Origin: Vulcanimicrobiota bacterium
GTDB lineage: Bacteria; Vulcanimicrobiota; Vulcanimicrobiia; Vulcanimicrobiales; Vulcanimicrobiaceae
Assembly (NCBI GenBank): GCA_963830545.1
Contig: CAWHMK010000002.1
Location: 25,749-89,748, forward strand
Reading direction: 5' to 3'
Length of the DNA: 64,000 bases
In this document: piece after piece, positions 58,680 through 64,000 of the stretch
Layout: the number at the start of each line of letters is the position of its first letter
How positions within the stretch are numbered: position 1 is the stretch's first letter
Notes under the pieces: model-generated
Seen by the model: the letters and a program-made list of their open reading frames with translations, nothing else
The model's database searches: none
What the model was told of the DNA's origin: nothing
Made by a program: the position numbers and the translations under genes

Positions 58680-59984
58680 GTGCTCGAAAGATCGGCAGTA
58701 CCGCTTCTTCTTTTCGCGCTCTGGCTGACTGCATGCGGCGGCGGCTCTTCCTCGGCCGCGCCCGGAACGCAACCCTCGATGCCGCCGTCGATATCGCCCA
58801 TATCGCCATCTCCGGGAAACACGGCCCAGCCGCAAAGTTGCACTTCGAACAGCACTCCCGCGCCGACGCCGACACCTGCGGGCCCCTCTGCGCAACCCGC
58901 GTCCGGATTGACCGTTCCTTCCGGCTTTTCCATTCAGATCGTCGGACATGTCGGCGGAGCACGCGAGCTCGCCGCCGCGCCGAATGGAGATCTCTTCGTC
59001 GGCACGACGGGTTCGAGCGTCTACGTCATTCAGAACGCGGAAGGCCAGGCCGCGTACCCGGCTGTTTTCACGAACGTCGGCGATTCGCCCGCGGCCGGCG
59101 TCGCGCTCTCGCTGTCCGCGCCGAATTGTGCGATGTACGTGGGCGCGCAGTTCGGCGTGTATCGCATTCCGTACGTCGTCGGCGACGAGGTTGCGCCGGC
59201 GGCACCAGAAAAAATTGCGAGCGTGCGTCCCGGCGGAAGCGGCGATCATTCGACGACGTCGGTTGCGGTGGCGAACGGCGTGCTCTATGCAAGCGTCGGC
59301 TCGTCCTGCAACGCCTGCAGCGAAACGGATGCGACGCGCGCAACCATTCAGCAGATGCAACTGGACGGCAGCGGAATGACGGCCAAGGCGATTCACATTC
59401 GCAACGCTATCGCGCTCGCCGTGAATCCCGCAACCCAAACGCTCTGGGCAGGCGATGCCGGACAGGATTCGCTGCCGGCGGGCCACCCGTACGAGTTCTT
59501 CGACGCAGTCACGCTGCACTCGGGAACCGCGGATTACGGCTGGCCTGACTGCGAGGAGAACCGGCACGCGTACACGCCCGGCGCGAACTGCAGCAGCACC
59601 GTCGTTCCGATCGTGGAATTTCCCGCGTACGAAACCATCATCGGCGCCGCATTCTACCCGGCGAACCAATCGGGAACGTACGCATTTCCGGCGGCCTATC
59701 GAGGCGGCGCCTTCGTGGCGATGCACGGCTCGTGGCATCAGGACGGCAGCGGAAAATACGTTTCACAACCGCGTGTGGCGTATGTTCCGATGAACGGCGA
59801 GGGGCCCGCGAGTGCGGTGAACTGGAGCGACCCGGCGGCTCAATGGAGCGACTTCGTGAGCGGTTTTCAGCTCCCGGACGGCACGACGAGAATCGGACGG
59901 CCGACCGGCATCGCGATCGGCCCCCGCGGAAGCTTGTTTATCGCGGACGATCAAACGGGAAATATCTACCGCATACGTCCATGA
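58680..59984 (+). CDS. Glucose/sorbosone dehydrogenase-like beta-propeller lipoprotein
   Basis: GTG 58680. Lipobox LWLTAC, Pro/Ser/Thr linker. ARELAAAPNGDLFVG, IRNAIALAVNP, ADYGWPDCE. Confidence 0.75.
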   Translation: MLERSAVPLLLFALWLTACGGGSSSAAPGTQPSMPPSISPISPSPGNTAQPQSCTSNSTPAPTPTPAGPSAQPASGLTVPSGFSIQIVGHVGGARELAAAPNGDLFVGTTGSSVYVIQNAEGQAAYPAVFTNVGDSPAAGVALSLSAPNCAMYVGAQFGVYRIPYVVGDEVAPAAPEKIASVRPGGSGDHSTTSVAVANGVLYASVGSSCNACSETDATRATIQQMQLDGSGMTAKAIHIRNAIALAVNPATQTLWAGDAGQDSLPAGHPYEFFDAVTLHSGTADYGWPDCEENRHAYTPGANCSSTVVPIVEFPAYETIIGAAFYPANQSGTYAFPAAYRGGAFVAMHGSWHQDGSGKYVSQPRVAYVPMNGEGPASAVNWSDPAAQWSDFVSGFQLPDGTTRIGRPTGIAIGPRGSLFIADDQTGNIYRIRP

Positions 59985-61075
59985 TAACTGTTCCGCCCGC
60001 ATTTACCATCGCGCAGATTGCCACCGTCGACGGCGCGCGTGAATTGGCTTTCTCGCCGAACGGCGATCTCTACGTCGGCACGCGGGGAACGCGCATCTTC
60101 GTCGTCCGGCGCGCGGAGAACGCGCGGCCTGACGCGCCCACCGTTTACGTTACCATCGACGACGCGCCCGATGCGGGCGTCGCCTTTTCCGCAGGCGTCC
60201 TCTACGTCGGCACCCAGCACGCAGTCTGGCGCGTGCAGAACGGACGCGCGACGAAACTTGCGTCGGTGCGAAGCGGCAGCCCGCCGCCCGGCAGCGACGG
60301 AGACGTGCACACGACGACGTCGGTTGCCGCAACCGGCGCAGCGGTCTACGCAAGCGTCGGATCTTCGTGCAATGCGTGCGTCGAAACGGACCGGACGCGC
60401 GCAACCGTCGGCAAAGTACAAGACGGGCGGTATCTGCCGATTGCAAGGCGCATTCGAAATGCGATCGCCCTGACGATCGATCCGCAAACGCGCGCGCTCT
60501 GGGTCAGCGATGCCGGGCAGGACGAGCTTCCGCCGGGACATCCGTACGAATTCTTCGACGACTTAACGGCTCAAAGTCTCCCTGCCGACTACGGCTGGCC
60601 GTTCTGCTATGAGAACCGCCGCCACAAACCCGGAACGAACCAGAACTGCACGCATGTTGCGTTACCGCAGATCGTCTTTCCACCGTACGAAACGCCGATA
60701 GGCGCGATCTTCTATCCCACCGGTGCGCGTGGCCGCTATGCTTTTGCGCGGCAGTACGCCGGTGGCGCATTTATCACGCTGCACGGCTCATGGCACGGTC
60801 CGGCGCAGGGTCTTTCCGGTTATCAGCCGCCGCTGGTCGTCTTCGCGCCCATGCGCGACGGAAGGCCCCTGCACTCCATAAATTGGAGCAATCCGGGCAC
60901 GCAGTGGACGCAATTCGTGGGCGGCTTCCAGGCCGGCGGCTCCATCGATCGCCTCGGACGTCCGACGGGAATCGCGGTCGGGCCGGAAGGCGATCTGTTC
61001 GTGAGCGACGACCAGACCGGCGCGATTTACCGTATTCGGCCCAAGCCGGATCCTACGGCTTCAGGCCATCGATGA
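59981..61075 (+). CDS. Glucose/sorbosone dehydrogenase-like beta-propeller, paralogue without signal peptide
   Basis: ATG 59981 overlaps the upstream stop (ATGA). ARELAFSPNGDLYVG, IRNAIALTIDP, ADYGWPFCYE. Confidence 0.75.
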   Translation: MITVPPAFTIAQIATVDGARELAFSPNGDLYVGTRGTRIFVVRRAENARPDAPTVYVTIDDAPDAGVAFSAGVLYVGTQHAVWRVQNGRATKLASVRSGSPPPGSDGDVHTTTSVAATGAAVYASVGSSCNACVETDRTRATVGKVQDGRYLPIARRIRNAIALTIDPQTRALWVSDAGQDELPPGHPYEFFDDLTAQSLPADYGWPFCYENRRHKPGTNQNCTHVALPQIVFPPYETPIGAIFYPTGARGRYAFARQYAGGAFITLHGSWHGPAQGLSGYQPPLVVFAPMRDGRPLHSINWSNPGTQWTQFVGGFQAGGSIDRLGRPTGIAVGPEGDLFVSDDQTGAIYRIRPKPDPTASGHR

Positions 61076-63303: not shown

Positions 63304-63333
63304 AAAAAGCCCGCGGTCGTTCGACCGCGGGCT
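63304..63333 (-). terminator. rrn operon terminator (hairpin shared with the convergent HiPIP gene)
   Basis: GCCCGCGGT .. ACCGCGGGC stem. On the minus strand it is followed by TTTTTG, 14 nt after the 5S end. On the plus strand the tail is weaker (TCGTTGTATTT). Confidence 0.7.
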
Positions 63334-63346
63334 TCGTTGTATTTAA

Positions 63347-63462
63347 TCTGGCGCCGACCTACTTTCGAGGGACCCTGCGGTCCGACTATCATCGGCGCTG
63401 GCGGGCTTAACTGCCGTGTTCGGGATGGGAACGGGTGGAACCCCGCCGCTATGAGCGCCAGA
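63347..63462 (-). rRNA. rrf: 5S rRNA
   Basis: Minus strand UCUGGCGCUCAUAGCGGCGGGGUUCCACCCGUUCCCAUCCCGAACACGGCAGUUAAGCCCGCCAGCGCCGAUGAUAGU..GGUCGGCGCCAGA. Terminal helix I pairs, and the loop C/E consensus is present. Confidence 0.9.
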
Positions 63463-63555
63463 AACCTGATCCCTCCGTCGCGCCGAGCCGGAGCTCCAGG
63501 CTGCGACGAAGGAAAGCTGCGTAGAGAAGAACTTCCAGTGCCAGACAGAGGAAGC

Positions 63556-63952
<397 letters not shown>

Positions 63953-64000
63953 CGCGTCATTCCACCGTTCCCGATGGCGCAGACTATATCTTCACCTTTC
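63953..64000 (-). ncRNA. 3'-terminal segment of a group I intron interrupting 23S rRNA (continues beyond window)
   Basis: Minus strand GAAAGGUGAAGAUAUAGUCUGCGCCAUCGGGAACGGUGGAAUGACGCG. It contains the group I S element AAGAUAUAGUC, a GNRA-capped hairpin CCAUCG-GGAA-CGGUGG, and a terminal G abutting exon C2501 (E. coli numbering). Confidence 0.65.

Follow-up and report, generated by a model that had tools for sequence, protein, structure and literature searches.

The yeast mitochondrial LSU ω intron, with its I-SceI gene, sits at L2449. The classical group I introns of bacterial 23S rRNA genes are found at L1917 and L1951 in Coxiella burnetii, at L1931 in Simkania and Thermotoga, and at L1917, L1931, and L2593 in cyanobacteria (Haugen et al. 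2007, PMC1995217). [quoted passage not shown] 2024, PMC11270868). The same portion of that text names positions 1917, 1931, 1952, 2593, 2604, and 2657 and refers to sites 23IS9-11 without giving positions. Position LSU/2500 is already a known group I site: introns assigned there to subgroup IA3 (IA3.2, IA3.3) have been described in archaeal metagenome assemblies (Nawrocki, Jones & Eddy 2018, PMC6125680).

The window analyzed here, a stretch of 64,000 nucleotides, ends, with a probability that we put at roughly 0.93, in an IA-type (probably IA3) group I intron that interrupts a high-GC bacterial 23S rRNA gene at U2500/C2501, in the peptidyl-transferase center. This intron is a new host-lineage member of the known LSU/2500 group I introns, real but ordinary. 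Related introns at the site, hereafter the L2500 family, were collected from genomes and metagenomes. Among the matches listed and the metagenome scan, the nearest relatives of the window are L035, L009, and L119, all with complete introns between U2500 and C2501.

Comparison with the described systems places this family as follows. I-SceI of the yeast ω intron belongs to the same endonuclease family as the ORFs of the long L2500 members, but at another site and in another host; in contrast to the ω intron, neither the part of the intron in the window nor L035, L009, or L119 holds an ORF. The archaeal LSU/2500 IA3 introns share the insertion site and P7.1/P7.2 with the L2500 family (PMC6125680). 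Compared by description, they span ~800 nt, whereas the ORF-less bacterial relatives found here measure 281-334 nt (PMC6125680). Their hosts are archaeal, whereas the host of the window is bacterial, given that the bacterial LSU model scores best and that the relatives are Eremiobacterota. As in the L2500 family, ORF-containing and ORF-less versions of CPR 23S introns occur at one site, although the CPR endonucleases that paper names at 23S sites are LAGLIDADG_1 and those of the L2500 family are LAGLIDADG_2 (PMC11270868). Many CPR MAGs carry this same L2500 family among the matches listed here, whereas the host of the window is non-CPR. The classical introns and the L2500 family are alike in being of the self-splicing type and in lying in the conserved core of bacterial 23S rRNA; cyanobacterial L2593 introns have P7.1/P7.2, like the L2500 relatives, and L009 adds an intron at L1931, a classical site (PMC1995217). 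L2500, however, is absent from that compilation, and the classical introns mostly carry single-motif LAGLIDADG genes. Our literature search, which had limited coverage, found no paper on introns in Eremiobacterota rRNA and none naming L2500 in bacteria.

The rRNA genes at the end of the window lie on the minus strand. The 3' exon of the 23S gene (63555..63952), with numbering anchored on E. coli, runs from C2501 to the 3' end, thereby comprising the 3' part of domain V together with domain VI (Rfam LSU_rRNA_bacteria, 411 bits), and contains the sarcin-ricin loop at 63799..63786. It is followed by a full-length 5S rRNA gene (63346..63462; Rfam 5S_rRNA, 98.3 bits) and, directly after this, by a 12-bp GC-rich palindromic hairpin (63307..63334) and a minus-strand T-run. 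This hairpin is likely the terminator of the operon. The terminator scan listed it on the plus strand only; the minus-strand T-run is visible in the sequence and falls just under the T-run criterion of the scan.

The bacterial LSU model gives the 23S exon its best score. The Rfam match to bacterial LSU rRNA spans 63555..64000 on the minus strand, its alignment becoming confident at CGAUGUCGG and not before. A local scan of the last 101 bases assigned 63952..63900 to LSU model positions 2527-2579 with a posterior of 1.00 and found nothing rRNA-like 5' of 63952, as stated in the initial annotation, which had 23S homology stop at 63952/63953; the exon resumes with CGAUGUCGG, at Rfam model position 2527. 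From C63952 to the sarcin-ricin sequence AGUACGAGAGGACC at 63799 there are 153 nt, a spacing identical to that in one E. coli 23S gene. Upstream, the E. coli copy compared falls 8 nt short of the reference numbering; positions were anchored on the sarcin-ricin loop, which we take to be 2654-2667 in standard E. coli numbering, including A2660 and G2661. With the loop starting at 2654, the 153-nt spacing sets the junction at U2500/C2501, the site that had been assigned at the outset. Homology to 23S rRNA ends exactly at C2501 (63952), and the insertion lies between U2500 and C2501, in the peptidyl-transferase center of the 23S rRNA. Since C is the first base of the introns in relatives, a junction at 2501/2502, one base later, is formally possible. 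This placement was rejected, as it leaves C at both -1 and ω; a U at -1 together with a G at ω is obtained from 2500/2501 alone.

The last 48 nt of the intron occupy 63953..64000 on the minus strand, as judged from Rfam Intron_gpI, from a family covariance model (R1, described below), and from the relatives; the remainder lies past the window edge. Read 5' to 3', this tail begins with GAAAGG (63995..64000), which aligns with the 3' strand of P8 in L035, L009, and L119 and whose partner strand is outside the window. J8/7 and the 3' strand of P7 follow as AAGAUAUAGUC (63982..63992), which agrees exactly with Rfam's group I consensus and in which the P7 3' strand UAGUC (63986..63982) bears the C of the guanosine-binding G-C pair. 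Next comes GCG (63978..63980), the 5' strand of P9.0, which pairs with CGC at 63956..63954 and shows paired changes in relatives. The P9 hairpin, CCAUCG-GGAA-CGGUGG (63962..63977), has 6 bp, one of them U·G, and a GNRA loop. The 3' strand of P9.0, CGC (63954..63956), stands directly before ωG (63953). This G closes the intron at the 3' splice site, immediately ahead of CGAUGUCGG, and 25 related introns have their terminal G aligned with it. In the exon, GAUGU (G2502-U2506, 63947..63951) is, by homology, the putative P10 partner of the guide segment ACAUC of the relatives. The window accordingly holds a J8/7-P7 3' element with the C of the G-binding pair and an ωG preceded by P9.0 and P9. The initial annotation had read an S element (J8/7-P7) at 63992..63982, a P9-like 6-bp GNRA hairpin at 63977..63962, and an ωG directly before the exon. 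All three were recovered, the first as an exact consensus match with no second copy in the window, the hairpin with covariation in relatives, and the last as G63953.

To delimit the family, one genome per GTDB species was scanned with a pattern in which 15-45 bases separate AAGATATAGTC from 26 exon positions, 23 of them specified. The scan retrieved at least 118 loci in at least 118 species with AAGAUAUAGUC, 15-45 nt, and then CGAUGUCGG. In 96 of the matches listed, the 5' exon TTGGCACCT was found 260-868 nt upstream, delimiting complete introns. Hosts among the matches listed include about 20 Eremiobacterota/Vulcanimicrobiota MAGs, four of which are complete chromosomes, as well as Actinomycetota, many Patescibacteria, Gammaproteobacteria-labelled MAGs, and two Coxiella-like endosymbionts. 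A metagenome scan with a clade-specific 53-nt pattern yielded one contig, L119 (soil), a close relative with a 281-nt intron. L035 (Eremiobacteraeota MFD09603.bin.2.176), on a 703-kb contig, carries a 334-nt intron; it matches the window at 96.2% identity along a 708-nt stretch covering the 3' end of 23S, the spacer, and 5S, and the protein-coding DNA next to this stretch is ~75% identical. For L009, a complete 3.56-Mb chromosome, the identity is 95.1%, and a 290-nt intron sits in a complete 23S gene (2661 bits). In these three relatives, 281-334 nt separate the 3' exon from the 5' exon ..UUUGGCACCU upstream of it. The rRNA and its flank point to Eremiobacterota as the most likely source of the window.

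The relatives also bear on the exon itself. At position 2510, A63943 pairs with U63875, where the consensus is C-G, and cmscan flags no mismatch. The same A-U pair is common to L035, L009, L119, L055, and L026 and is absent from other intron-family hosts. The C2510A change, which had been annotated together with a compensatory partner, is therefore part of a lineage-specific compensatory pair common to the Eremiobacterota relatives. Apart from this pair, the 3' exon is conserved and intact.

Several taxon labels among the hosts call for comment. L073:95-874 and L074:3425-4204 (-) have identical 780-nt introns and identical 400-nt 3' exons, yet the former is labelled an "Undinarchaeota archaeon" MAG and the latter a "Planctomycetia" MAG. 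Most likely, this is one rRNA contig binned twice, and the taxon labels of MAG rRNA contigs should therefore be read with caution. Eremiobacterota-like sequence was also seen under the labels "Acidoferrum" (L059) and "proteobacterium" (L022).

The 11-mer AAGATATAGTC at 63992..63982 occurs once in the 64-kb window, with a chance expectation of 0.19 matches per window at one mismatch or fewer. Alone, it is weak evidence for a group I intron. In a 101-base search, 64000..63961 aligned with the last 41 positions of Rfam Intron_gpI (213-253) at 17.3 bits (E 0.01). The gathering threshold of RF00028 (50 bits) is reached neither by this 40-nt fragment nor by the complete L009 intron (21.3 bits). Given that the same general model awards 79 bits to a second, different intron of L009, RF00028 is simply weak for the L2500 family. 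Owing to this insensitivity, we used instead R1, a covariance model built from 22 complete related introns, with the window left out, and including 8 exon bases. Searched against both strands of the whole 64-kb window, R1 gave one match, at 63945..64000 (-), with 63 bits and E 1.1e-18, covering model positions 254-309 of 309 and cut at its 5' end by the window edge. The 48 nt, first annotated as the 3' end of a group I intron, thus align with the end of Intron_gpI and far more strongly with R1.

The R1 score is partly circular because the family was retrieved with a motif present in the window and because the model holds 8 exon bases. Agreement at unconstrained positions and in helices is independent of this circularity. 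At positions that the search pattern leaves free, the window matches L035 at 8 of 8 nt before the motif and at 28 of 29 between the motif and the exon. Over the whole tail, 47 of 48 positions are identical; the one exception is in P9, where the window has U·G in place of a U-A pair. At the level of sequence, we take the decisive evidence to be these unconstrained 8 nt and 29 nt, matching the complete intron of the closest relative among the matches listed. The tail, the junction, and membership of the family are all observed in the window itself.

The fold was derived from an alignment of 22 short related introns, with the window left out, using RNAalifold followed by curation to a 76-pair structure. 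It comprises P1, P2, P3, P4, P5 with an extension, P6, P7, a P7.1/P7.2 region, P8, P9.0, and P9. Across the curated 76 pairs, 97.8% of cells hold standard pairs, and 42 pairs have changed on both sides. None of 500 column shuffles reached any of five measures, and sliding the 3' partners by 1-3 columns left pairing at 33-44%. P1 of the relatives, CACCUC/GGGGUG, has the U2500·G wobble in 22 of 22 introns and an invariant guide sequence, GGGGUG. P7 (GACUG/UAGUC) is invariant, and P8 shows compensatory changes at 7 of 9 pairs. P9 is paired in 100% of cells in the 22 relatives, with compensatory changes at five of its six pairs; among the 119 tails listed, 98 have all six pairs and 20 have five, in 59 distinct stems with GNRA loops throughout. 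P9.0 is kept through changes from GCG/CGC to ACA/UGU, and its two ω-proximal pairs are formed in 94-96% of the 77 distinct tails among the matches listed. P10 joins ACAUC, 5' of the guide sequence, to GAUGU of the 3' exon, the relatives starting with CAACAUCAGGGGUG. RNAalifold also proposed GAUAU/AUGUC pairs between J8/7 and the 3' exon; these were rejected, since the columns are all invariant and the pairs conflict with P7 and P10.

Between the 5' strand of P7 and the 3' strand of P3, the P7.1/P7.2 region has a hairpin with varied stems right after GACUGA, as well as a 6-bp helix that covaries, with compensatory changes at 5 of its 6 pairs, and encloses another hairpin. The presence of P7.1/P7.2 in the relatives indicates subgroup IA. 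Within it, IA3 is the probable assignment, a label taken from that given to LSU/2500 introns in PMC6125680.

Taken by analogy with the relatives, the genome upstream of the window edge would be expected to contain an exon ..GGUUUGGCACCU, a guide region like CAACAUCAGGGGUG, and a P3-P8 core. The rRNA operon would be transcribed together with the intron. The guide GGGGUG near the 5' end of the intron would, by homology, pair with CACCU of the exon, and U2500·G would mark the 5' splice site. Attack after U2500 would then come from an external guanosine held by the G-C pair of P7. In the second step, ωG (63953) would take the place of this guanosine, with P9.0 and P10 (ACAUC/GAUGU) positioning the 3' splice site, and ligation of U2500 to C2501 would restore canonical 23S rRNA. 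Given that the ribozyme lies in the strand that forms the peptidyl-transferase center, every ribosome of the organism presumably needs accurate self-splicing.

Three other explanations were weighed against a group I intron that splices. The intron end could be genuine in a gene that is not intact upstream, either because the rRNA operon is a relic or truncated or because the assembly is broken or misjoined within the intron, such that no functional spliced 23S would arise. The window does stop 48 nt into the intron, and rRNA operons are frequent assembly breakpoints. However, the tail and exon are near-identical to intact loci on long contigs or complete chromosomes (the 703-kb contig of L035 and the 3.56-Mb chromosome of L009), and the exon, the 5S gene, and the terminator-like hairpin are intact and conserved. 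At 63952/63953, moreover, the sequence shows no change of character beyond the expected exon-intron boundary. We give this explanation a slight chance.

It is more improbable still that the intron is complete but is retained, or is removed without ligation, so that the mature 23S carries it or is fragmented at the peptidyl-transferase center. Relatives conserve the determinants of splicing (P1 U·G, guide sequence, P10, ωG, P9.0, and the G-binding pair) and show covariation, and the site is on a strand lining the peptidyl-transferase center, where, judging from ribosome structure, 300 additional nucleotides would probably not be tolerated. A precedent comes from Simkania, for which Everett et al. 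reportedly described an unspliced 23S group I intron in 1999.

That the 48 nt are not group I at all, but an RNase III-processed intervening sequence, the end of an IS element, a group II intron, or a chance resemblance, is effectively refuted: a Rfam score under threshold and the chance expectation of 0.19 for the 11-mer alone are set against an E value of ~1e-18 with the family model, 47/48 identity to the tail of a complete, covariation-supported group I fold, and the placement of bacterial 23S intervening sequences, which replace hairpin tips such as that of helix 45 (PMC4990558) and not position 2500. An RNase III intervening sequence was rejected as a candidate in its own right, the insertion lying in the single-stranded core segment 2500/2501 and carrying group I helices. 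Neither group II nor IS features were found, and the Rfam scans matched no other family.

With a self-splicing group I intron at U2500/C2501 as the preferred reading, its size and coding content can be estimated from the family. The introns of L035, L009, and L119 (281-334 nt) contain no ORF. Going by these three closest relatives, the intron of the window probably measures ~280-335 nt and lacks a homing-endonuclease gene. Long family members (780-868 nt) carry ORFs of ~190-210 aa; L100:127-950 is one such version, and L004, L037, L062, L073, L080, L082, L086, and others also belong here. Three of the long-version ORFs were scanned, and all are LAGLIDADG_2 (Pfam E 1e-38 to 1e-40). Among solved structures, the best match of the ORFs of the L2500 family is I-SceI (E 1.5e-10). 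ORF-containing introns (e.g., L100) and ORF-less ones both occur within Eremiobacterota. The existence of long members with an ORF and short members lacking one agrees with the usual cycle, in which an intron homes and later loses its ORF.

Within the clade, intron identity follows exon identity with a Spearman coefficient of 0.74 over 253 pairs, some of the exon comparisons being disturbed by further insertions. As a rough test, this correlation is consistent with mainly vertical descent of the L2500 intron in the Eremiobacterota clade. A bolder, composite proposal strikes us as rather unlikely, though worth stating: that the L2500 intron is fixed and vertically inherited in a large part of Eremiobacterota, a free-living, non-CPR phylum (20 or more species-level genomes, with intron divergence tracking rRNA), that assembly of the peptidyl-transferase center depends on self-splicing, and that about half of the family has A for the terminal G.

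The interruption has practical consequences. The 23S gene is probably not broken, and if the intron goes unrecognized, rRNA predictors and 23S-based analyses will cut the gene short or mis-score it. The family extends the host range of 23S group I introns to a non-CPR soil phylum, Eremiobacterota. The initial annotation called group I introns rare among bacterial rRNA genes, a remark that is correct for cultured bacteria but dated as a general statement, with at least 118 species here and hundreds of introns in CPR (PMC11270868). The collected family, drawn from at least 118 species and including members that carry LAGLIDADG_2 genes as well as members that lack them, could serve as a resource for the study of intron gain and loss, and its A-ended subset could help show how group I introns manage in the absence of ωG.

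This subset is sizable. Among the complete L2500 introns listed, 45 of 96 end in A rather than ωG (..GUA directly before CGAUGUCGG), as do 40 of 77 distinct same-length tails. Examples are L006:1636-1974 and L109:6723-7170 (-), along with about 43 other loci, and most of these introns start with U. Their catalytic core is unchanged, including the P7 G-C guanosine-binding pair, and P10 (AUAUCG/CGAUGU) and P9.0 put the splice site at the same phosphate. Alternatively, these introns might use the G two nucleotides upstream, leaving a UA insertion in the 23S rRNA. The hosts are CPR MAGs, Gammaproteobacteria-labelled MAGs, and a complete Coxiella-like endosymbiont genome (L109). An intron of C. burnetii, Cbu.L1917, was reportedly described by Raghavan et al. 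in 2007 as one that "lacks the canonical omegaG"; it is said to end in A and still to splice. To our knowledge, this is the only known precedent for an ω other than G, and our literature search found no report of terminal-adenosine group I introns.

Some hosts of the family have more than one 23S intron. In the Coxiella endosymbiont of Ornithodoros amblus (L010:5322-6295), an L1917 intron ending in ..UUAG is followed by a 14-nt exon, AACGGUCCUAAGGU, and then by an L1931 intron that appears A-terminated (..GAUUAUA directly before AGCGAAAUUCC). The same 23S gene also holds an L2500 intron of 832 nt, and no ORF reaching 100 aa was detected there. L009 carries a second group I intron, at L1931 (L009:3713-4019; Rfam 79 bits), and its 23S gene has extra sequence of roughly 75 nt near E. 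coli 270-290 and roughly 190 nt near 1390-1590. By analogy with L009, the 5' part of the 23S gene to which the window belongs, which lies outside the window, may have similar interruptions.

Away from the rRNA operon, two adjacent ORFs on the plus strand of the window, 58680-59984 and 59981-61075, overlap by ATGA. They share the segments ..NGDLFVGT.., HPYEFFD, DYGWP, and RPTGIA.GP.G.LF..DD.TG.IYRIRP, a resemblance that suggests a tandem duplication. The first of the two (58680-59984) has a lipoprotein-like signal (LTAC).
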